IMG/VR virus record: IMGVR_UViG_3300045988_103846 | Length of the DNA stretch: 64,000 nt | DNA from: a virus | Strand: one strand, 5' to 3' | Shown here: one piece after another, positions 2,400 through 14,705 of the stretch | Numbering within the stretch: the stretch's first letter is position 1 | Layout of the letters: each line of letters begins with the position of its first letter | The notes under the pieces: generated by a model | What the model was told of the DNA's origin: nothing | Seen by the model: the letters and a program-made list of their open reading frames with translations, nothing else | Database searches by the model: none | Translations under genes and position numbers: made by a program

Positions 2400-3851
2400 T
2401 TAAATGTCACCTGTCTTGTGGGCTGCTTTAGAAGCATCTGCCCTTGTATTATTATTAGACTTTCGCTTGATCATTTGATCTACTATCTTCCCCTGAGTCT
2501 CATCATATTTAGCCCGAGCATCTTTGGAGAATTCTTTCCACCTCTGCCTGTCAGGATCAATATTAAAGAGACATCTCCCATGAGGTTTACCATCCCTCTG
2601 AACTACAATTTCAAGCCTCTGAATATTATGCTCTTCTTCATCATCAGTAGAGTTGAGACCCATGATGCACTGGGCATTTCTGATGATAGATATTGCAGAA
2701 GCAATATCGTTGTCTTCATACACAGTATCTTTATGCTTAGCCCCCTCTCGAGTTATATGCTGAGCAGTCCATATTGCATCTAGTCCCAGCTCATTCCCGA
2801 GATTATCTAGATCAATGTATACTTGATTGATTCTCTCTATATCCTCTTTTTGACGAAGAGTAGACCCGAGCTTTGCAGCATAATCAACCATGAGTATATT
2901 GATCTTGATTCCCAGCTCTGCTTCCACTTTCTGAATGATAGCCCTGATCGTGTTAGTGTCATCAATGAGAGCAGCTACCCTTTCTACAATGAACTCAACC
3001 CCGAGTCTCTTATATTTCCTCATGTGCTTCTGCTCCTGCTTATCATAATCTCCAGAGAGAAGGTCTAGTTTAGTTTTGTTCAAAGTAGATTGAATCATTC
3101 TCTCCATGATCTGCCTCTTTCCATTCTCAGTGTCTATATAGAGAACATTCTTCTTCATCGACAGATACCCTCTTGCTACATTGATGAGAGCAAAGGTCTT
3201 CTTGGCTTTTGGTCGATCTAGTAGAACAAAGATTGAACCCCGAGAGTAGCCCTGTCCATTAGATAGATTATTTAATTGCCAGTATGGAGTGGGAATAACA
3301 TCAGGGTCAGCTTGTCTGAATAACTGTCTCTGGCTAGTTCCCCTTACCATCATCAGAGGCTCTTCCTCTTTGACTGGCTTAGATTCTTGGATGATTTTAG
3401 AAACCTTAGATTGGTAGTCAGCATAAGTGTTGAAGTTAGAGAAATCCATTTGCTCGGTGAGAGCCTTCATCTCTACATAAGCGGCAAATTGATAGATCTT
3501 CTCTAAGATAGCATCCCCGTCCTTAAGAGGGATCCCGTACAGGTTGTCGATGACCTTATGAATATTAGGGATATCCTCTTTGGTCACCAGGTCTACATAG
3601 CTCTTGTCTTCAAGCAAATTCTTGAGAGTCTCAATCAAGAGAGGTTTACTTGGGATCTTCTTATATTTCCGGTAGAACTTATGCAGCCCCTCTAATATAA
3701 GGGAATGCTCAATCAGAGCAAAATAACCGGGCTTGACCTTGTTCATCACAAGTGAACCCTCTTTACCCTGGATCAAGAACCTCAAAACCTCCAGTTGAAA
3801 CTCCAGAGAGAATGAGAATTTGTTAGTTGCATCAAAAGTGTGCTTCTTCAT
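2400..3851 (-). CDS. DnaB-like replicative helicase (RecA-fold)
   Basis: Walker-A-like LLDRPKAKKTFALINVA (compare DnaB RPxMGKT). Walker-B-like INILMVDYAAKL, then WTAQHITREG. Start moved to the ATG at 3851 (MKKHTF...) because the track's 17-aa extension covers a promoter-like AT-rich leader. Confidence 0.7.
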   Translation of the reverse strand: MKKHTFDATNKFSFSLEFQLEVLRFLIQGKEGSLVMNKVKPGYFALIEHSLILEGLHKFYRKYKKIPSKPLLIETLKNLLEDKSYVDLVTKEDIPNIHKVIDNLYGIPLKDGDAILEKIYQFAAYVEMKALTEQMDFSNFNTYADYQSKVSKIIQESKPVKEEEPLMMVRGTSQRQLFRQADPDVIPTPYWQLNNLSNGQGYSRGSIFVLLDRPKAKKTFALINVARGYLSMKKNVLYIDTENGKRQIMERMIQSTLNKTKLDLLSGDYDKQEQKHMRKYKRLGVEFIVERVAALIDDTNTIRAIIQKVEAELGIKINILMVDYAAKLGSTLRQKEDIERINQVYIDLDNLGNELGLDAIWTAQHITREGAKHKDTVYEDNDIASAISIIRNAQCIMGLNSTDDEEEHNIQRLEIVVQRDGKPHGRCLFNIDPDRQRWKEFSKDARAKYDETQGKIVDQMIKRKSNNNTRADASKAAHKTGDI

Positions 3852-6733: not shown

Positions 6734-7558
6734 TTACGCTGAGGCAGTGGTCGTTGTAGTAGTCTTCAGGGCTGCTATGAGAGCGGCATTCTGTCTCTGT
6801 TGTGAGAGCTCAAGACGAGCATCATTGTACCTCTGCTGGAGGTCCTGCTGCCAGTGAACGTTGAGAAGATCCATGATCTTCTGGGTGTTGTCCTGGTTAG
6901 CACGAATGATGTCGCACTTGTCTTGCTGAGCCTGGAAGGCCGTGGCGGAGAAGCCTCTCTCAATACTTGTGTTAGTCCGATCGAAACCAGACTGCATAGC
7001 ATTTATGATGTCTTTCTGGCCGAGCTGATTCTCGTAGCCCATCTTGATGATAGACTGCTGAGTCTGGCAGCAGCAATCCTTGAGAGCCTGAGTGAGCTGG
7101 AGGTTGCCCGTGAGGACAGCATTGATAACCTTCTCAGCATTAGAGTCAGCCTTTCCAGCCAGCAGGGCAATACCCTGGCGAACATCGCAGATAGCACCCT
7201 GGAGGGTGTTGAAATCGCAATTGAGGTTACCAGCAAGCTGGTTGATAGCAGAGTTAACTCCCTTGACCGCATCCATGACGAGGTTGGAGTTCTGGTTGTC
7301 TTGCATCTGGGTTCTGATTGCAGAAAGCTGGTTCTGTATCTCGGAATCCTGCAGGCCCTCCCGATGGTTGCCCCACATACGGTTAGCGAACATCATCCAT
7401 ACGAGATAGATGAACGGGTTGTTGTTCCAGTTGTTTGCACCTCCGTTGAGAGCAGCGGCCATGGCCATAGGATCAGTCTGATTCTTCTGGCTGAGGAGTG
7501 CATACAGAGCATCATTACTGTCACGATCACAGTAGATCTTTTCAATAGTATCTGCCAT
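6734..7558 (-). CDS. hypothetical Q/N-rich protein (274 aa) with a CCC motif and poly-Thr C-terminus
   Basis: ATG ORF with its own 262-nt upstream non-coding region and its own terminator. The local stop-poor composition opens antisense and alternative frames. Confidence 0.7.
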   Translation of the reverse strand: MADTIEKIYCDRDSNDALYALLSQKNQTDPMAMAAALNGGANNWNNNPFIYLVWMMFANRMWGNHREGLQDSEIQNQLSAIRTQMQDNQNSNLVMDAVKGVNSAINQLAGNLNCDFNTLQGAICDVRQGIALLAGKADSNAEKVINAVLTGNLQLTQALKDCCCQTQQSIIKMGYENQLGQKDIINAMQSGFDRTNTSIERGFSATAFQAQQDKCDIIRANQDNTQKIMDLLNVHWQQDLQQRYNDARLELSQQRQNAALIAALKTTTTTTASA

Positions 7559-7670
7559 AATTTTGGTGATTTTAGATTAGTGTTATGAATAAAATGGGTT
7601 AGAACGATACAGGAGAATTGAAAAAACCCTTGGCGCCTTTTAGATTTTTCGCATCCCTTGTATTTAATAT

Positions 7671-7683
7671 AAAACTGGTCTTG
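7671..7683. repeat. 13-mer AAAACTGGTCTTG, copy 1 of 3
   Basis: Exact 13-mer also found at 21796-21808 and 43305-43317. All three are intergenic or upstream of minus-strand genes. Confidence 0.8.
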
Positions 7684-7820
7684 TGTTTTAATGCCTGAAT
7701 GTGAATCAGTTACGAATGGGCAGAAGATGGCCACATGGCCTTTGGTTCACAAAAAGAAAGGAAGATCACCGATTATAGGGTACCTATAAATTTTGGCAAT
7801 CTTCCTTCAAATTTTGGCAA

Positions 7821-10625
7821 CTAGCTAATTAGGGCAATCCATGATTCACCAGTGGCAGCACTAACATCCATCGTACAATCATTATTCAAGGATCCAAAAT
7901 CCCAGCCCCCATAAGATTGATCACCATCCTCATCAAACGGAGCTAACCACTTATCACCAGCAACCACAGTATCACTATCAGGACTCGTACCTACTGAGAA
8001 TCCAAAACTCATATTAGCTGAAATAGGCTCTGCGGTTAAATTTATATGTCCATCATGGGCTTCTGAAATTGTGGTATAAACACCATCATTGTTAATCAAG
8101 AATATCTCCCATCCATCAAAGATTATATAATTAGTTGACTGAGTCAACGGTATAACTCGATAGAAGCTTATATTCTTAATTATATTACCGTCTGAATCGG
8201 TTGAAGTGTTAATGTTGTCAAAAGGTTGAATAGGGATCACCGGAGCATAGCATATCTCGCTTCCTGCATGGTAATAAAGACGTAAGAATGCTTTTATACC
8301 ATAATCTGTAGGATCTTGTGAAAAGGCCACAGGGAATGTGCCCGTAAGGGTCATCTTACGAGTAGAAAGCATGTTCACACCGTAAGTCTCTGAGAGCTCT
8401 ATAGAGTTCGTATTTCCTGAAGCTGCAAAGTCTAACAGCTGATTCTTCAGATTAGAAGTAATAAGGTCATACTCATAGAACACAAAAGTAGTATTGGTAA
8501 AGTGAGTCTTAGAAGTGGATCCAAACACTGGAACTACGTTAGCTTGGGTACTTCCATTCTTAACCCAGAAGTAGAGATAGTTGTAACCCTGCCAATCACC
8601 TTCATTAAGCTTACTAGATAGCTGTTCTATAACAGAGTGTGCAACTGATAGACCAAGATCACTGTCATTTACATAATCAGTTGTCCCTAATTCAATATGA
8701 TCTTCATTAAACTCATTGAGAGTTCCAAATGGTGATACACAAATGGTGATATCGCCTGAAGAGACATTCAACTTACCACAAACTTCATGAGTAATAGTGA
8801 GAGTGTGAGCTTGTTCAGCAGAAGCATCCTGTGTACAATTGCAAGTGGCAATCACATCTCCAGTAGAAGCTTTAAGAACGAGATCAAAGGTTCTCTCTGA
8901 AGAAGTGTTAACATCCGGTGCCAGAGACAAGCTCTTATTTCCGGTACCACTTATTGGTAGCGAGTTGCCACTTACTAAACTGTTGCCAACGTAAGAAGGA
9001 CCATCGATAGTCCAACCAACATTATCTGGATCAGAGATATTCAAATCCAAGCCTGATGGGGATAGATCACTTTGACCATTGCTGTCAAAGCGGAATGTAG
9101 TAGGAACATTCCAAGAAGGACTAACTAAAGATTCCTGATGGTAGGATATAGATGCTGTAGTTGACTTGTTCCCCTCGCCCGTTATCTTCATTTCAATAGT
9201 ATCATCTCTGCTTAGGCCCGTGATGTTCTTACCAACAGTGGCCTTGAGATTAAGCTCATCAATGGTTACCAAACTTGGTACTGATGTGAACTCATAGGTA
9301 AAATCAGTTATAGTTCTAGTAGCACCAGAAGTATAGGTGGCTGTCTGGTTCGGGGATACCTTAGCGGCTATATCTACATCCCCACCAGTCTTTGGAATGT
9401 TTACAGTTGTAGATGTGGCATTAACTGATGAATAGGTTACTTGGTTGGCCTGTTGGTACACATCAATGCTTTGGGTTACTTTAGAGCCATTCCAGGTTAT
9501 AGTGGCTGTAACTGTGTCAAGTTTTGTTCTGGCCTTAACAGTTGAACCAAGATTTGAGCCGTTTACCGTTTTAGACAACGTAATGATAACATCTGAGGAT
9601 GTTATAGAAAGAGTATCGGATTCTCCAGAAGAATAATCAATCTTGCCTGAAGCTGAGATAAAGTTTGGTGAGTCAGCTGAGCCACCAGATGCTGGGATAT
9701 CGTCTAATGAAACAGAAGCAGAGCTTAAAGTGTAGGTGGCCTTATTAGAACCCTGTTTTACAGAGTCGGTGGAAGTTAAGGTCTGACCATTAACGATAAT
9801 GGTTATCTTAATAAGGGCTAACTTATAAGAATCAGTGATGTTCTTTCCCAGAGAATCCATAACTAGCTCTCCTGTTTGCTCGTTTAAGGTCCAGTTATAA
9901 GGGGAACCAGGAGGATCAGTATAATAAGTGTATTTTACAGAATGAGAAGAATTAGATTGTGTAAGAGTTCCACCACCGGATGTTTTGCCATTCCATCCCC
10001 AAGGGATTGAAAATTCGTAAGAAGGGGTAGCAACTCCTCCTTCTGCGCCGATATTCCAATTAGAATATCTCATATTGACACTTGCAGTGCCGTAGGTCTT
10101 CTCGCCTTCTGTCTGGGTAATAGTGATGATTTTAGAAGATACCCCAGGATCACCCGAATCTCGAAGCCTGAAAGTGATGTCCCTAGAGTTCTCTGTCTGA
10201 TTCTCCGCCACGTCAAAAGAGATCTCAAAAGTGTAAGAGCTAGATGCTCCAGGATCACCCGATATCTGATGAGAGGCGTTCCCGTCCCAGGAATAGGCCG
10301 TCCCGTTTACCTTAAGGGCAAAGTTTGAAAGTAAAGAAGAATTAGTGAGATTAGTCAGCTTCAGAGACGGCGAGTTGCTAGTGCCAGTGATTTTCACGGT
10401 GCCACCAAGAGCTGTGACAAAATAATAAGCCTTGTCTACTGTGATAAACTCACCAGCTCCAATCTGTGAGAGAACTACAGAATCATAGGCCCCACCAGAG
10501 GTAACACCTTTGATAGAGCCTGATCTGCTTGACCTTCCAGTATGGGAGCTTGCTTTTAATGATCTTGTTCCTGAGCCACTTCCTGTAGACCCAGATACTA
10601 CAGTGATCCAACTTGGTTTTGCCAT
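7821..10625 (-). CDS. BACON/Ig-like repeat fibre or surface-binding protein (934 aa)
   Basis: The N-terminus MAKPSWITVVSGSTGSGSG...RSGSIKGVT...VVLSQ reads as the distal two thirds of a BACON repeat. There are multiple S/T/G-rich repeats ending xTxxQ (ITITQ, IDVYQ). It lies at the distal end of the tail-fibre block. Confidence 0.65.
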   Translation of the reverse strand: MAKPSWITVVSGSTGSGSGTRSLKASSHTGRSSRSGSIKGVTSGGAYDSVVLSQIGAGEFITVDKAYYFVTALGGTVKITGTSNSPSLKLTNLTNSSLLSNFALKVNGTAYSWDGNASHQISGDPGASSSYTFEISFDVAENQTENSRDITFRLRDSGDPGVSSKIITITQTEGEKTYGTASVNMRYSNWNIGAEGGVATPSYEFSIPWGWNGKTSGGGTLTQSNSSHSVKYTYYTDPPGSPYNWTLNEQTGELVMDSLGKNITDSYKLALIKITIIVNGQTLTSTDSVKQGSNKATYTLSSASVSLDDIPASGGSADSPNFISASGKIDYSSGESDTLSITSSDVIITLSKTVNGSNLGSTVKARTKLDTVTATITWNGSKVTQSIDVYQQANQVTYSSVNATSTTVNIPKTGGDVDIAAKVSPNQTATYTSGATRTITDFTYEFTSVPSLVTIDELNLKATVGKNITGLSRDDTIEMKITGEGNKSTTASISYHQESLVSPSWNVPTTFRFDSNGQSDLSPSGLDLNISDPDNVGWTIDGPSYVGNSLVSGNSLPISGTGNKSLSLAPDVNTSSERTFDLVLKASTGDVIATCNCTQDASAEQAHTLTITHEVCGKLNVSSGDITICVSPFGTLNEFNEDHIELGTTDYVNDSDLGLSVAHSVIEQLSSKLNEGDWQGYNYLYFWVKNGSTQANVVPVFGSTSKTHFTNTTFVFYEYDLITSNLKNQLLDFAASGNTNSIELSETYGVNMLSTRKMTLTGTFPVAFSQDPTDYGIKAFLRLYYHAGSEICYAPVIPIQPFDNINTSTDSDGNIIKNISFYRVIPLTQSTNYIIFDGWEIFLINNDGVYTTISEAHDGHINLTAEPISANMSFGFSVGTSPDSDTVVAGDKWLAPFDEDGDQSYGGWDFGSLNNDCTMDVSAATGESWIALIS

Positions 10626-10642
10626 GATGATTCTGTTTTTAG

Positions 10643-10677
10643 AAAAAATTAGAAGATGAGAGGGGTTTCGCCCCCTC
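10643..10677 (-). terminator. terminator-like hairpin between the two BACON-repeat genes
   Basis: The minus strand reads GAGGGG GCGAAA CCCCTC, then TCATCTTCTAATTTTTT. The U-tract is displaced by about 11 nt. Confidence 0.45.
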
Positions 10678-10693
10678 CCACCTTATGACAGTC

Positions 10694-12346
10694 TTATTCA
10701 AGAGTCCAGCTGTCGTTTGACTCTATAGTGAGCTCCTTGGATTCTCCGGCAGCCACAAAGGTGAGGCTCTCTGGAGTGAGGTTGATGTAGGAAGAAGACC
10801 CCTGCTGACTAAACGTGAAGTCTCTGGTGGCAGTCTTGCTGCCCTCGCCGGTGACAGTAACTGTCACTACAAAGCCTCCACGAGGCTCCGTAGTAGGGTT
10901 GGCTCCAACAGAGACGATGCCGTCAGAAGAGAGAGCAAACCCAGTTGCGGCGGTCTTGACCTTTGGACTGAGATCAAAGACAACCGCAGCAGTAGTGCTG
11001 GCCTCTGTTCTGGTGGCGCCAGAAGTATAGGTGACAGTCTGCTTAGCTCCAACATTGGAGTTGTCGGTCATGTTGCGGCTTTGGGTACCATCTGCCTTGA
11101 GTGAAATCTCTGTGGCAACGGCAGAGTCAAAGGTGATGTCACCGTAAGTGGCGGTATTGGCTGCCTGATATACATCCACAGAAGCGGACTTGGTAGCTGT
11201 AGTCTTCCAGGTAACTGTAGCAGTGAGAGTGCCTTTCTTAGTTCTGTTGGTAACAGTAGTACCAAGTGAAGCAGCTGAAACTCCCTCACTAAATGTGATG
11301 GTACAATCATCAGAGCCGTTGGTGAGGGCAACATCACTGGTGACTGAACCTGAGGTATAGGTTTTGGAACCCTTGGCTGTAACGGTGGCAGAAGATACTG
11401 AACCTCCGGAAGCTGGGATGTCAGCTGGAGCAGCCAGTTTCACATCTGTAACGGCATAGGTTACAGAGTTAGCCTGCTGGCTAACTGAAACTTCCTTGGA
11501 AGCGGACTTGCCGTTAGCCGTGAGGGTGATGGTCACTGTTCCTGAAATTACCGCACCAACAGTAGTGCCACGGGAAGCCGCAGTCACCTGACCCGTAGCT
11601 GTGGCAAGGGTAAGGGCTTCTGGCCAGCCCGTCTTAGTTGCATAAGCAACAGTGCCACCGGTAGTAATGGTGCCACCCCCCGAGGTAACACCGTTCCATC
11701 CCCAAGGCTGGGAGAAGGAAACAGAAGGAGCATCAACTGTACCACCGGCAGCAGGGATTTGCTGATAAGTGCCCACGGTGAGGGTAACAGCACCATAAGA
11801 CTTAACACCCTTGGCCTGAGTGATGGTGATAGCTTCTGTGGTCACATCGCCGTTACCATTCTGAAGCTTGATCTCCAATGTTCTGGCAGCTTCTGTCTTG
11901 TTCTCTGGGATCTTGACGTCGATAGTGAAGGTGAATTCTGCATTCTTACCCGGATCGTCATCAATGCCCGTGTCAGTCTTTCCATCCCAAGAATCATCAT
12001 TGACTGCGTTGACTTGGATCTTGTAGGCTGCCCCAGGGATAATCTTGCCCGTAGTCTCGGCCACCTTGATGTTTGCCGTATTTGCGGTACCAGTGATCTG
12101 AATGGTGTCAGAACCGTCAGAGTTGCTACCTTTTGCAGCGGCATTGTAAGTCTTGGTCGGCACATTAATGAACTCAGCCTTACCGGCCTGAGAAACTGAA
12201 GTAGTGTCGGTTGCACCTCCAGTTGTTTTAGCAGTGATTGTTCCACCTCTCTGCTGACGACCCGTGTACTCACTGGCGGTAACAGTTGTGGAATCGTTCA
12301 TGGAACCTGAGCTCTTGCCCAGTTTGATCCAACTCGGTTTTGCCAT
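10694..12346 (-). CDS. BACON/Ig-like repeat fibre or surface-binding protein (550 aa)
   Basis: The N-terminus MAKPSWIKLGKSSGS...GGTITAKT...TSVSQ is paralogous to that of the 934-aa ORF. Internal repeats end ITITQ, VSVSQ, VDVYQ and FTFSQ. The C-terminus ends mid-repeat (ELTIESNDSWTLE*). Confidence 0.65.
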   Translation of the reverse strand: MAKPSWIKLGKSSGSMNDSTTVTASEYTGRQQRGGTITAKTTGGATDTTSVSQAGKAEFINVPTKTYNAAAKGSNSDGSDTIQITGTANTANIKVAETTGKIIPGAAYKIQVNAVNDDSWDGKTDTGIDDDPGKNAEFTFTIDVKIPENKTEAARTLEIKLQNGNGDVTTEAITITQAKGVKSYGAVTLTVGTYQQIPAAGGTVDAPSVSFSQPWGWNGVTSGGGTITTGGTVAYATKTGWPEALTLATATGQVTAASRGTTVGAVISGTVTITLTANGKSASKEVSVSQQANSVTYAVTDVKLAAPADIPASGGSVSSATVTAKGSKTYTSGSVTSDVALTNGSDDCTITFSEGVSAASLGTTVTNRTKKGTLTATVTWKTTATKSASVDVYQAANTATYGDITFDSAVATEISLKADGTQSRNMTDNSNVGAKQTVTYTSGATRTEASTTAAVVFDLSPKVKTAATGFALSSDGIVSVGANPTTEPRGGFVVTVTVTGEGSKTATRDFTFSQQGSSSYINLTPESLTFVAAGESKELTIESNDSWTLE

Positions 12347-12376
12347 ACTTTTTAATGGTTTTAGAAAGTTAATAAA

Positions 12377-12556
12377 TTAACCTTTGTTAGGTGTTTCGTC
12401 GTTGTATTTAACTCCAAGAGTCCATGGAGCATTAGACTCTATAGTTAGATCTTTAGTGCTCTCTGGGTCCGGGAATTCTAAGTTCTCTGGAACAAGTTTG
12501 ATAAACTCATCCAGAGGTTGATGCTTGTGCATCATCAGAGCTCTAAATACACTCAT
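12377..12556 (-). CDS. small ORF (59 aa) ending in a half BACON-like repeat
   Basis: Not in the track because it is under 60 aa. ATG at 12556-12554, TAA at 12379-12377. Sequence: MSVFRALMMHKHQPLDEFIKLVPENLEFPDPESTKDLTIESNAPWTLGVKYNDETPNKG. The segment LVPENLEF..ESTKDLTIESNAPWTL parallels the C-terminus of the 550-aa ORF (LTPESLTF..GESKELTIESNDSWTL). Confidence 0.55.
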   Translation of the reverse strand: MSVFRALMMHKHQPLDEFIKLVPENLEFPDPESTKDLTIESNAPWTLGVKYNDETPNKG

Positions 12557-12559
12557 AGC

Positions 12560-12916
12560 TTAGGCTTTTGGAAATTCTCCCCAGACAGCCAGAGACCCGA
12601 TCACTGAGATCACATATATGTGATCAGCTTGAGTGACAGGAGCCTCACCGTTCATCCATTTGATGGTGGAGTCACCCACGATAGCATGGATGGTTGCTCC
12701 CACTTCGATAGTATAGACAGTCTCTTTGTGAGATGCGCTTGCCTGAACAATGTAATCGTTCTCGAGCTCTGGGACATCTACGTAGGTGACACCATCTAGT
12801 CTATCCAGTACTTGTTTTACGTCCTCATTCTTATATTTTACCTGATCTGAGTTTGTGACATATTGGCCCTCTAATGGTCGTCTTAGTTCGCCATAGATCT
12901 TGATATAATCTGCCAT
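12560..12916 (-). CDS. hypothetical protein (118 aa), fibre-module associated
   Basis: ATG ORF packed between fibre genes. Confidence 0.6.
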   Translation of the reverse strand: MADYIKIYGELRRPLEGQYVTNSDQVKYKNEDVKQVLDRLDGVTYVDVPELENDYIVQASASHKETVYTIEVGATIHAIVGDSTIKWMNGEAPVTQADHIYVISVIGSLAVWGEFPKA

Positions 12917-12929
12917 GATATTCTAAGTT

Positions 12930-14705
12930 TTAAGAGATAACAATGGTCATAGGGTCAGTACCAGGAAGATCCTTAGTTCGATAGCACTTGTAGGTTCCCA
13001 GTGGAGTAGAAGCCTCTACTGGAGCCAAGAACGGAACATCGAAACCACTAGATGTAACCTTGTTGATTGACATGGTGTTAGGGACACAGAGCCACAGGTA
13101 CTTAGTAGCATCATCATTGTTAAGAGTCTTGGTACCATTGAGAGAAGAGCCTCCCTTAGTCAGTGAAGTGATAGTCAACTCATTTCCTGTGGTGGCCTTA
13201 GAGAATCCATAGTATACTGGGAGATATAGATTAGCACTGATAGACCTTGGTGAGTTCTTTATAGTAGTAGAACCCTTCTTAGCAGTGACTGAGCCAGATT
13301 TGTAGCCCCGAGTAGAAAGAGTGAATTTCTCTGAGCCCTCCGCTACATTCTCCAGGGTCTTAGTCTCGCCGTTGAACTGGATCTGGACAGTGTCAGCTAC
13401 TACTGGCTTAGAGTTTCTGAGAACCCTGAAAGATACACTGACCTCTACTGAGTTACCTGTCCATTCTGCCGAAGACGGCGAGATGGAAGCCTCAAGTGAA
13501 GTCGGGAAGCAATGGTCCTGCAACTCAGTAATGGCCTTGGTGACAGCCTTGTTTTGAACTGCATTGGTAGATTCTGCATCAAGCTCAGCATCTACTGTAA
13601 TACTTCCCCCCGGTGTGTCTGGCTTATTGAGGATAGCCCCTGGAGTTCCGGGCTCGGCATTCCAATCAGGCTTAACATTCTTTTGAGCCCCCTCCTCCAT
13701 ACCATCCAGTTTATCCTTATCTTCCTGGGTGAAGTCTTTGGTAGAAAGACCCTTGCCCTCTTCTTTCTGAACGTAGTTGCTGAGGTCCTGATGTTTGGTC
13801 AAGAAGTTGGAATCATTCTCAAGCTCTGACACCTTGGTGGGAACCTTGATATTTACTTCCTTGTTCTCTACTGGAAGCTCAGTTCCATTGACCTTGATCT
13901 TCTCGATAACGTTTTCTTGACCCCCTGTGCCTGAGCCTCCTGGAATCTCAATATTACCCTCACCGAAAATGGACTGACCATTGATAGTCTTAGTCTTGAG
14001 ATCATTCTCTAATTCGGAGAGCCTGCTGGGGATGTCAGTGGTATTGGCCTTCTCGTTTAGGGATTCTTCTAGAGAATCTACTTTTTGGGAAAGGGAGTCT
14101 ACTAGAGTTTTATCGGGTTTAGTCTCTAGCGCTTGGTTTACTTCCTCCTTGGTGTAAGCCTTGTCGGAACCCATAATGCCCAGATCTTCCAGAGTCTTAT
14201 TGCCCTCTAGGACTACGTCATTGATAGAAGGCTTATGCTCCAGATCATTGTAGTCTGAAGTACCGCTTCCTCCCGTGTTAACGTTCTTACCTAAATTGAC
14301 AACCTCTAGATCGATCCCCATAGTGAGATCAATGCCATAGCCATTCTCACCCTCAGTATCTTGGGTAGAATAGTCTGTATCGCCCTGGCATCGAACCACA
14401 TGGATAATATTGCACTCATAAGCCCTCTTATTCAAGCCCCCCTTAACAAAAGAGACTTCAACATCATAATCGGTAAGCTTTAATTTAGTTCCCGATACTA
14501 GAGTGCTTATGACATTCTTGCCCACAATCTTGAAAGGGGCAAGGCGGAGAACATGGCCATTGATCTGGCTGATTAACTTGACTTCTAGAGACTTAGCATC
14601 CCTTATATCATAGGGATCAGGAGCCTGAGTCTCTTTATTAGGTGTAGATAGGGCGATGTTCAGGGTAAAGTCATTACCCTGAACCACCGTTACAAAGTTA
14701 TTCAT
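12930..14705 (-). CDS. tail fibre protein (591 aa)
   Basis: Position after the large fibre gene. Repeated SELEND motif, coiled-coil-like middle, and KGLSTKDFTQEDKDKLDGMEEGAQKNV, a motif I associate with phage fibre proteins. Confidence 0.6.
   Translation of the reverse strand: MNNFVTVVQGNDFTLNIALSTPNKETQAPDPYDIRDAKSLEVKLISQINGHVLRLAPFKIVGKNVISTLVSGTKLKLTDYDVEVSFVKGGLNKRAYECNIIHVVRCQGDTDYSTQDTEGENGYGIDLTMGIDLEVVNLGKNVNTGGSGTSDYNDLEHKPSINDVVLEGNKTLEDLGIMGSDKAYTKEEVNQALETKPDKTLVDSLSQKVDSLEESLNEKANTTDIPSRLSELENDLKTKTINGQSIFGEGNIEIPGGSGTGGQENVIEKIKVNGTELPVENKEVNIKVPTKVSELENDSNFLTKHQDLSNYVQKEEGKGLSTKDFTQEDKDKLDGMEEGAQKNVKPDWNAEPGTPGAILNKPDTPGGSITVDAELDAESTNAVQNKAVTKAITELQDHCFPTSLEASISPSSAEWTGNSVEVSVSFRVLRNSKPVVADTVQIQFNGETKTLENVAEGSEKFTLSTRGYKSGSVTAKKGSTTIKNSPRSISANLYLPVYYGFSKATTGNELTITSLTKGGSSLNGTKTLNNDDATKYLWLCVPNTMSINKVTSSGFDVPFLAPVEASTPLGTYKCYRTKDLPGTDPMTIVIS

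Follow-up and report, generated by a model that had tools for sequence, protein, structure and literature searches.

At two consecutive gene junctions of the 64,000-nucleotide virus record IMGVR_UViG_3300045988_103846 (the window), a BACON-type Ig-like domain is divided between two genes, the upstream protein ending in the N-terminal third of the domain (the tail) and the downstream protein beginning with the C-terminal two thirds (the head). From comparison with related loci we propose, with a probability of roughly 0.7, that these pieces complement each other's fold non-covalently and so connect each fibre subunit to the next by a uniform plug and socket. The initial annotation had offered three explanations, namely fission of a giant fibre gene inside its repeats, complementation of half-domains in trans, and translation across the junctions; the second appears to be the best supported, on comparative evidence. 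The ORF coordinates, ends and junction geometry given there were borne out by direct reading of the sequence (Table 1), and the tail/head split reported at both junctions is real and is conserved in related loci.

Table 1. Features of the split-BACON cluster in the window (positions in nt; an asterisk marks a stop codon).
Feature	Position	Strand	Description
118-aa protein	12560..12916	(-)	C-terminus ...AVWGEFPKA
mini-ORF, 59 aa, tail-only	12377..12556	(-)	C-terminus ...LTIESNAPWTLGVKYNDETPNKG*
BACON tail of mini-ORF	12416..12505	(-)	aa 18-47, FIKLVPENLEFPDPESTKDLTIESNAPWTL; PF19190 join match, tail HMM match
junction 1 spacer, 30 nt	12347..12376	(-)	A/T-rich, without hairpin; TAA, then stop-free in-frame nt
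550-aa fibre subunit	10694..12346	(-)	MAKPSWIKLG... to ...LTIESNDSWTLE*
head 1	12188..12346	(-)	C-terminal two thirds of BACON from Met1, MAKPSWIKLG...TSVSQ
tail 2	10697..10804	(-)	N-terminal third of BACON, extreme C-terminus of 550-aa protein, ...YINLTPESLTFVAAGESKELTIESNDSWTLE*
junction 2, 68 nt, out of frame	10626..10693	(-)	GC-rich hairpin 10653-10684
934-aa distal fibre subunit	7821..10625	(-)	N-terminal head, without tail, variable C-terminal tip
head 2	10464..10625	(-)	C-terminal two thirds of BACON from Met1, MAKPSWITVV...VVLSQ
internal unsplit degenerate BACON-like domain of 934-aa protein	8826..9143	(-)	about aa 495-600

Joined, tail and head match whole-domain profiles of BACON (PF13004/PF19190); single pieces are incomplete. 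At junction 1 the head alone covered positions 42-93 of the 94 in PF19190, a viral model longer than PF13004, with 31 bits, and the join covered 6-93 with 37 bits; the tail alone had no Pfam match. At junction 2 the join was colinear with residues 35-119 of 8va4_A. A profile built from 10 naturally paired tails and heads matched 3zmr_A 16-91 (E=1e-8) and 8va4_A 35-120 (E=6e-8) with a gap of just one residue at the split point, and the segment equivalent to the tail is an integral part of the domain in these solved BACON structures. The top matches in a search of 1.84 billion proteins aligned residues ~2-94 of the window join to single contiguous repeats; most of what this search matched were BACON proteins with multiple repeats. 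The break between the genes falls between the two conserved tryptophans of BACON.

It had been suggested that a full-length hit would be obtained only with the concatenated pieces. This held for PF19190 at junction 1 and for the solved domains at junction 2, but not for PF13004 (61 positions), of which head 1 alone covers 8-61 and head 2 alone 8-59; because this profile is nearly fully covered, the head might be a smaller unit that folds stably by itself. Joining was expected to restore the W-(7 to 8 aa)-W spacing, and does so at junction 2 (8 residues; 7 in 3zmr, 8va4 and the related protein P0332) but not at junction 1, where the tryptophans of the window lie 19 residues apart (13 in most relatives) because the mini-ORF tail has 3-12 additional residues past WTL. 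The 550-aa protein consists of a head (aa 1-53), four Ig-like domains and a tail (aa 515-550), and the xTxxQ domain ends noted initially were confirmed, with Q53 and the residues closing the four Ig-like domains (Q177, Q290, Q394 and Q514) invariant in 49 homologues. The mini-ORF product opens with a conserved peptide (MSVFRALMM), which is followed by a short linker and the BACON tail. None of the 550-aa, 934-aa and mini proteins belongs to a PHROGs family.

Loci related to the window were collected from crAss-like, Flandersviridae-like and other gut phages, giving 48 loci with narrower profiles or 52 with broader ones, each in addition to the window. With the narrower profiles all 103 tails ended 0-12 aa from the stop and 97 of 105 heads began at the initiator Met, while with the broader profiles 103 of 104 tails were C-terminal and 102 strong heads were N-terminal, the sole internal tail being that of the fused protein P0332. 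This pattern is far beyond chance since every related locus that was examined shows it, and a control scan of a 49-kb stretch of crAss001 (11000-60000) returned neither heads nor tails. Homologues of the 550-aa protein at 45 to 96% identity keep both the M[AP]KPxWI start and the SNDSWTL[ES]* end; the comparison of relatives that had been proposed gave related termini and a retained split. Every tail and head piece is under purifying selection, with pN/pS values of 0.32 for the mini-ORF, 0.12 for head 1, 0.20 for tail 2 and 0.33 for head 2, and residues P11, F16, I27, S29, N30 and W33 of the join are invariant over lineages diverged to about 45% protein identity. An assembly error or pseudogene was rejected on the grounds of this selection and of conservation in thousands of sequences. 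Neither megablast of positions 7000-13000 nor tblastn of the 550-aa protein and P0075 gave a match among INPHARED phages (a set without prototype crAssphage records), and no annotated isolate relative was found in that set.

The pieces also occur as free-standing genes. Tail-only mini-proteins are found in several lineages as 28 distinct variants of 49-59 aa, a range that sets aside upstream extensions of a few variants, and head-only mini-proteins of 80-90 aa exist as well. Most loci carry two heads and two tails or three of each, despite differing gene order (L039, L042); with the narrower profiles, unbalanced loci have three tails against two heads (L001/L044) or two against one (L003). In the crAss-like locus L001 the C-terminus of a 532-aa HFD-type protein is a tail. 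In close relatives the same tail adjoins heads beginning MAKPSWITVV... or MALPDWLRISP..., which are very different heads. The first ~600 aa of the 934-aa protein are 70-94% conserved, with tip types giving proteins of 701, 794 and 910-934 aa, and in some relatives the whole protein is replaced by an 82-aa head-only protein. In related loci the gene that directly precedes the mini-ORF always encodes a member of the 118-aa protein family, with homologous C-termini ...VWGIFK, ...VWGIF and ...VWGEFPKE in L001, L003 and L005, and this protein is a candidate partner or anchor of the mini-protein.

As to history, the evidence supports the suggestion of the initial annotation that a repeat protein was split within one of its repeats. 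Over aa 1-541 the 550-aa and 934-aa proteins are paralogues in colinear arrangement (34% identity, E=2e-69), and where the 550|934 gene boundary would fall in the 934-aa chain, that chain is unbroken: the tail of the 550-aa protein aligns to residues ~500-541 of the 934-aa protein, where the chain runs on to ...CNCTQ. The hhalign match of this internal segment to the joined profile was weak (E=0.011, probability 3.7%). P0332 (408 aa) aligns colinearly to two tandem copies of a 203-aa head-D2-tail unit (48% identity, E=2e-117), its tail|head join coincides with an intact internal BACON, and by this alignment it represents a natural (Rosetta-stone) fusion of two such units. A search of 5.8 billion proteins with the junction chimera gave 115 matches, comprising 76 N-terminal head-only, 36 C-terminal tail-only and 3 junction-spanning proteins; none was an orthologue in which the 550-aa and 934-aa proteins are fused.

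Translation across the junctions, with stop readthrough at junction 1 and a frameshift or bypass of the T4 gene 60 type at junction 2 yielding a giant fibre protein, is extremely improbable. Junction 1 in the window is in frame, its TAA being followed by 30 stop-free nucleotides as initially described, and the stop and hairpin of junction 2 superficially resemble the gene 60 take-off site. However, relatives do not conserve the frame relation of junction 1, their spacers being 2-102 nt long and falling in all three frames; the in-frame junction of the window is a coincidence because of a stop loss at 12395-12397 (GAA in the window, TAA in most relatives), from which the last six mini-ORF codons (ETPNKG) derive. 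Among 46 distinct junction sequences the downstream gene is in frame 0, 1 or 2 in 10, 8 and 5 cases for long-to-head junctions and in 14, 3 and 6 for mini-to-head junctions, with gaps of 2 to 103 nt, and A-run length polymorphism alters the frame between relatives that share about 95-97% identity with the window. The length, frame and hairpin reported for junction 2 were correct, and with a GC-rich hairpin of 13 pairs (7 G-C; the strongest terminator-like hairpin in the region) followed by a T-rich stretch and an A-rich leader, it resembles an intrinsic terminator lying between two cistrons. A hairpin is present in 23/23 distinct long-to-head junctions of the window's family, the stem sequence differing per lineage, and the L001/L044 junction contains a terminator together with a Bacteroides-type TAnnTTTG promoter box. 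In the downstream frame of junction 2 a TGA and a TAA precede the ATG, and an ATG with the conserved M-A-K-P opens every head. Programmed recoding and ribosomal bypass were rejected, as frames and spacing vary, the sole GAA landing codon at junction 2 is out of frame, and Rfam returned nothing on 7000-13000 at E<=0.1. The variable frames and gaps, the hairpins and the promoter box refute translation through the junctions.

In the proposed scheme, the three genes would give separate polypeptides of one virion fibre. The tail would comprise about 30-35 C-terminal residues in roughly three strands, ending ...SNxxW[TS]L, and the head the first ~54 residues (M-A-K-P-x-W-I...Q) in roughly four strands, such that the tail of one protein and the head of another would form one complete BACON beta-sandwich, with subunits at 1:1. 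The likely chain in the window runs from the 59-aa mini-protein to the 550-aa protein (head...tail) and on to the 934-aa protein (head and variable tip), and the mini-protein may serve as an adaptor through its conserved MSxFRxLL N-terminus. A standard connector would let recombination exchange distal modules while proximal genes are left untouched, and how strongly tail and head genes are expressed relative to each other may be governed by the terminator-like hairpin that separates them. By synteny the locus is the tail-fibre module of a contractile-tailed gut phage; sheath, tape measure, Baseplate_J, capsid and terminase genes are present in the window genome, which fits the description of 'Flandersviridae' in PMC8008677, and in crAss-like relatives the same parts come after a head-fibre-type protein. 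PF25641 (Head_fiber_dimeric), the crAss-type dimeric head fibre, has no match in the window proteins scanned and occurs only in crAss-like relatives. We hold it slightly more probable than the opposite that one portable split-BACON connector is common to unrelated lineages of abundant human-gut phages (crAss-like, Flandersviridae-like and others), is reassembled post-translationally and concatenates fibre or adhesin subunits, with ~200-aa units that could polymerise in a pilin-like way and mini-proteins acting as adaptors or caps.

The AF2 model of the full-length 550-aa protein is all-beta with a pLDDT of 87.7; both termini are moderate (about 71-83), and strands are present in the head as well as in the tail. 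The protein resembles strings of beta-sandwich domains of the protocadherin and RTX-adhesin kind. Join 2 modelled by AF2 as a single chain without an MSA gave a pLDDT of 35.

Tails and heads might instead be non-interacting leftovers of fission and recombination, the tail-hairpin-head DNA serving only as a homology linker, the head folding alone and the tail being disordered. The coverage of PF13004 8-61 by the head alone is in keeping with this, as are the clear shuffling of distal modules at the tail/head boundary and the conservation of junction DNA between close relatives. It is nevertheless an unlikely explanation, given selection at the protein level (pN/pS 0.12-0.33), tail BACON core residues that stay invariant down to about 45% identity, free-standing tail-only and head-only genes, persistence of the split in lineages without the hairpin whose junctions are 11 nt long or overlapping (L050, L051), and the inclusion of the tail-equivalent segment in solved BACON domains. 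Less unlikely, though still improbable, is that complementation is real but that head...tail proteins close on themselves or polymerise like pilins, with the mini-proteins as caps or chaperone-like placeholders; head and tail counts are compatible alike with a linear chain, self-closure and homopolymerisation. P0332 joins two units of the same type tail to head, strong heads and tails are confined to a single ~200-aa head-D2-tail unit in L051-L053, one tail type can stand beside very different heads, which suggests low pairing specificity, and in L039-L041 the mini-ORF adjoins a different head protein (2-nt gap) while the 548-aa head...tail protein stands alone. Against this, the gene order of the window and L005 types fits a simple chain of mini, 550-aa and distal proteins, and to close on itself an elongated protein with five or six domains in a row would have to make a U-turn.

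Tail plus head has the same sequence signature and length as known BACON domains (PF13004/PF19190; BoGH5A 3ZMR, GH16 8VA4), and the BACON repeat proteins of crAss-like and 'Flandersviridae' phages are likewise strings of Ig-like domains in structural modules of Bacteroidota gut phages; in the phage loci described here, one domain extends across two genes. In chaperone-usher pili an incomplete Ig-like fold is completed by a strand from the neighbouring subunit, giving head-to-tail fibres, and this process uses a single N-terminal donor strand placed in a groove and needs a periplasmic chaperone and an usher. The phage donor would be about three C-terminal strands (about 30-35 aa) of the preceding protein, with assembly proposed to be cytoplasmic; the term 'donor-strand-like' used initially may thus understate the case, as about three strands would be donated and not one, and the likeness is no more than an analogy of mechanism. 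When 15 window proteins around the cluster were scanned with Pfam and PHROG, phage structural proteins were the only matches, and chaperone or usher homologues were absent. In the type V pili of Bacteroidia (FimA/Mfa1), made by the same host phylum, C-terminal strands enter the beta-sandwich of the next subunit after a protease has removed the N-terminal strand of a lipoprotein precursor. The phage heads are incomplete from Met1, starting MAKPSW without a signal peptide or lipobox, and do not belong to the type V pilins.

Fragments of one fold also associate to join two polypeptides in SpyTag/SpyCatcher (CnaB2 domain), split GFP and split inteins. Such engineered split domains are man-made or covalent, whereas the phage pair would be natural, non-covalent and virion-building. 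Trans-splicing by a split intein was rejected, as there was no intein or Hint Pfam match and the WTLE*/MAKPSW termini align to an ordinary BACON loop. Neighbouring fibre genes with conserved N-terminal docking and exchangeable tips are also seen in the joints of T4 gp34-37, the anchor-branch systems of Klebsiella phages and crAss001 gp22/gp29 (for the N-terminal docking of the latter, see PMC10172136), but these use complete domains or hub-bound N-terminal peptides, and none is described as a two-chain split domain. The 122-aa gp29 of crAss001 is without BACON. We found no mention of split or partial terminal BACONs in the gut-phage BACON literature (PMC6949934, PMC8008677, 10.64898/2026.02.02.702849) and no published description of the fibre assembly predicted here.

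Docking of the two halves, if it occurs, would explain how fibres are built and re-tooled in some of the most abundant phages of the human gut, and would represent a new way for virion fibres to assemble and for host-range or mucus-adhesin modules to be exchanged, in which distal modules are swapped at a protein-level connector and not by in-frame recombination within one gene. BACON-rich gut-phage fibres are implicated in host glycan or mucus binding, and experiments that display single BACON proteins could suffer where what is displayed is a half-domain carrying a head. The tail/head pair is also a candidate split-domain tag for protein engineering and, if it docks as predicted, a natural non-covalent means of protein ligation. 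For annotation, ORFs of ~50 aa at such loci are real structural genes, and terminal 'BACON domain' calls are half-domains for which gene-by-gene structure prediction will mislead. A 96%-identical protein in BFVD (A0A8S5UWT5) is catalogued as 'BACON domain-containing protein'.

The order, coordinates and termini of the fibre genes described in the initial annotation were all found in the window, and both junctions were confirmed, junction 1 being in frame and junction 2 out of frame with a hairpin (see table). The 59-aa ORF (mini-ORF) and the 550-aa gene each end in a tail, the N-terminal third of the Ig-like domain BACON, and the genes that follow them each begin at Met1 with a head, the remaining two thirds. 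The window, which encodes a terminase, capsid, sheath, tape measure and Baseplate_J, comes from a contractile-tailed phage, and the fibre genes sit at the distal end of its tail-fibre module. Its genome agrees with published descriptions of 'Flandersviridae' gut myophages (PMC8008677; preprint 10.64898/2026.02.02.702849), to which it may belong. In the 260-nt non-coding gap (7559-7820) that follows the 934-aa gene, the region's best match to a sigma-70-like promoter (7799-7772, minus strand, TTGCCA-16-TATAAT, 11/12) lies upstream of a 274-aa gene.

Fibre genes, junctions and the conserved protein preceding the mini-ORF
Feature	Locus	Position	Strand	Description
118-aa gene, ...AVWG(E/I)F protein	window	12560-12916	minus	first in order
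59-aa ORF	window	12377-12556	minus	C-terminal end ...KDLTIESNAPWTLGVKYNDETPNKG*
Junction 1 (59-aa ORF to 550-aa gene)	window		minus	TAA, then 30 in-frame nt without stop
550-aa gene	window	10694-12346	minus	N-terminus MAKPSWIKLG..., C-terminal end ...KELTIESNDSWTLE*
Junction 2 (550-aa to 934-aa gene)	window		minus	68 nt, out of frame
Terminator-like hairpin in junction 2	window	10653-10684		13 pairs, strongest of the region
934-aa gene	window	7821-10625	minus	N-terminus MAKPSWITVV...
...AVWG(E/I)F protein	L001	4735-5181
...AVWG(E/I)F protein	L003	6401-6844
...AVWG(E/I)F protein	L005	5352-6803		C-terminal part

It had been proposed that PF13004 models the whole unit and would be matched in full only when tail and head are joined. 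This did not hold for PF13004, in which the head alone matched positions 8-61 of 61, almost the entire model, but it did at junction 1 for PF19190, a longer model of viral origin with 94 positions, where the head alone covered 42-93 (31 bits) and the join of the 59-aa ORF with its head 6-93 (37 bits). The join at junction 2 aligned unbroken to the GH16 BACON (8va4_A residues 35-119). A profile built from ten natural tail and head pairs (A2) matched BoGH5A (3zmr_A 16-91, E=1e-8), 8va4_A (35-120, E=6e-8) and a sulfatase BACON, with the split falling between both conserved tryptophans (WtlemakPdW versus WHISTS-ESW) at a one-residue gap in the alignment. Using phmmer against 1.84 billion representatives, the window join gave 3074 matches, the best of which were multi-repeat BACON proteins with query residues of about 2-94 lying on one contiguous repeat of about 85-90 aa. 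Because the join matches both single contiguous repeats and solved BACON structures, tail and head together constitute one BACON unit. Joining had also been said to restore the spacing between the tryptophans, as was seen at junction 2 (8, against 7 in intact domains) but not at junction 1 (19 in the window, 13 in most relatives). The wider spacing there comes from extra residues that the mini-ORF carries past WTL.

The C-terminal 150 aa of the 550-aa protein were fused to the N-terminal 150 aa of the 934-aa protein, and this chimera served as the query against 5.8 billion proteins. Among 115 re-aligned matches, 76 covered the head half only, starting at residue 1-3, and 36 the tail half only, ending at the C-terminus; the join was crossed in only three. 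In two of these, both distant proteins, the BACONs are ordinary and intact and the long N-terminal regions seem to be unrelated. The third, P0332 (408 aa, from a crAss-like contig), reads head, second domain (D2), intact BACON, D2, tail, and aligned end to end with an artificial tandem dimer of P0345, a 203-aa head-D2-tail unit (48% identity, E=2e-117), the tail|head join of the unit falling on the intact internal BACON of P0332. By this alignment P0332 is a natural Rosetta-stone fusion. Such units of about 200 aa form a large family, with 1305 members in one cluster alone. Two further comparisons point the same way: an HFD-type 659-aa protein of L003 has a complete C-terminal BACON that aligns across the join between the tail of the 532-aa protein and the head of the 555-aa protein of L001, and in the window the 550-aa protein, including its tail, aligns colinearly to aa 1-541 of its 934-aa paralogue, which itself continues unbroken into a degenerate BACON-like domain. 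The profile match to this continuation of the 934-aa protein was weak. L001, a crAss-like relative, also carries a GIY-YIG/NUMOD homing-endonuclease-like gene (1-368) and a second inserted gene with a GIY-YIG-like N-terminus (2793-3515) among its structural genes.

Head and tail HMMs were used to search stop-to-stop translations of 48 related phage loci and the window. All 103 tail matches lay 0-12 aa from a stop, and 97 of 105 head matches began at the initiator Met of their ORF, the remaining eight being weak matches to ordinary internal BACONs. Broader profiles, applied to 52 loci and the window, gave 103 C-terminal tails out of 104 and 102 N-terminal heads, with 23 more weak head matches that were internal; a crAss001 control region gave neither heads nor tails. 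Purifying selection acts on each of the four pieces (pN/pS: mini-ORF, 0.32; tail, 0.20; head 1, 0.12; head 2, 0.33). The 550-aa protein had 2870 scored homologues, and among those listed the start M-[AP]-K-P-x-W-I and the end ...SNDSWTL[ES]* were kept from 96% to about 45% identity. Its domain ends at Q53, Q177, Q290, Q394 and Q514 proved invariant, in line with the xTxxQ signature pointed out in the initial annotation. Distant homologues occur in crAss-like genomes, adjoining Crass_capsid, ring and muzzle proteins; the BACON head/tail module is therefore common to unrelated phage lineages. In another crAss-like lineage (L050 7200-7778), a 192-aa Cys-rich protein unrelated to the Ig-like strings has the C-terminal tail ...FDINPIELNFGFNDIYEKYVEVNTNIDWNVK*, evidence that the plug can be attached to proteins of a very different kind.

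The 59-aa ORF is a member of a conserved tail-only protein family (49-59 aa, 28 variants) with the consensus MS[VM]FRxL[LM], a linker, [YF]I[RK]LxPxxLx[FY]...ESNxxW[TS]L and 3-12 further residues. The family always lies directly downstream of a protein or domain ending in ...VISV(I/L)xxxAVWG(E/I)F, which exists on its own (118-148 aa) or as a fusion with a 483-aa fibre protein and had no Pfam or PHROG match. Head-only proteins also occur: one of 80-82 aa replaces the 934-aa gene in some close relatives, and in another lineage one of 90 aa is followed by a Gp53-like tip protein. Head and tail counts per locus are mostly equal (2/2 or 3/3) despite altered gene order in L039 and L042; exceptions include L001/L044 with three tails and two heads. 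Head-only mini-proteins from the unrelated lineages L030 (10084-10332) and L051 (8609-8881, followed by a Gp53-like_C tip protein) share the C-terminal motif F[IL]LSDG[GS]TFNV[LI]K, which may be a second docking peptide.

Translation across the junctions, one of the explanations first offered, is ruled out by a comparison of 46 distinct junction sequences. Long genes are separated from heads by 58-103 nt (frame relations 10/8/5) and mini-ORFs from heads by 2-102 nt (14/3/6); variation in the length of an A-run is by itself enough to shift the frame between relatives that share about 95-97% identity with the window. Junction 2 offers a single GAA landing codon, which is not in frame, and no Rfam family matched at 7000-13000. 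Junction 1 seems to be in frame because the window mini-ORF has lost its stop, reading GAA where most relatives have TAA and running six codons longer (12377-12397). We propose instead that the subunits are made from separate cistrons and that their terminal half-domains would co-fold, about three tail strands with four head strands, into one BACON sandwich linking them non-covalently. Proteins with both a head and a tail may also close on themselves or homopolymerise.

Under the proposed linkage between subunits, the simplest chain in the window would run from the mini-protein through the 550-aa protein to the 934-aa protein. The mini-protein may serve as an adaptor via the conserved peptide at its N-terminus; the 934-aa protein, with its conserved first ~600 aa and variable C-terminal types, would bear an exchangeable tip. 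In close relatives the same tail of the 550-aa protein adjoins very different heads, which would fit a generic connector that allows modules to be swapped. An AF2 model of the 550-aa protein (49-sequence MSA; pLDDT 87.7, pTM 0.50) was an all-beta string of Ig-like domains resembling protocadherin ectodomains and RTX-adhesin extenders, with moderate confidence (about 71-83) for head and tail. The nearest viral models both came from a single uncultured phage genome: a 'BACON domain-containing protein' with 96% identity, and the 921-aa protein next to it. Join 2, modelled as a single sequence without an MSA, reached a pLDDT of only 35. That tail and head complement each other physically is our inference. 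One might speculate that the split site is held by a clasp between the conserved M-A-K-P at the start of the head and the final residue of the tail, which is acidic or polar.

Among known mechanisms, the proposed one comes nearest to the donor-strand complementation of chaperone-usher pili and to the strand exchange seen in type V pili of Bacteroidia. The former are defined by a single N-terminal strand with a chaperone and usher, and the latter by a lipoprotein precursor and proteolysis; these features are absent from the phage system. The literature found on phage BACON proteins and the crAss001 structure does not mention split domains, and crAss001 gp29 differs in being a 122-aa protein without BACON. 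On these grounds we rate the split BACON as a putative case of inter-subunit fold complementation, a known principle not previously described for phage fibres or BACON in the literature found. The split BACON is widespread among the phages that are most abundant in the human gut.

A GC-rich hairpin with a lineage-specific stem is present in every long-to-head junction of the window's family. It is absent in other lineages, where an 11-nt gap or a gene overlap is found, so it is not part of the splitting principle and is probably a regulatory add-on. The L001/L044 junction has a Bacteroides-type TAACTTTG box 3' of the hairpin and T-run. The A-run, just 5' of the distal-gene ATG (window 10626-10650; L007-L038), varies from 4 to 8 A, a difference in spacing but not in coding that might tune translation initiation. 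In L005 (6965-7000) and its equivalents in L006 and L037, the spacer between the mini-ORF and a 562-aa head gene is a 12-nt tandem repeat, TTATATTTTTGT, in 3, 4 or 5 copies among otherwise near-identical phages. Every copy contains a Bacteroides-type TAnnTTTG box, suggesting that the array may be a variable-number promoter-like repeat.
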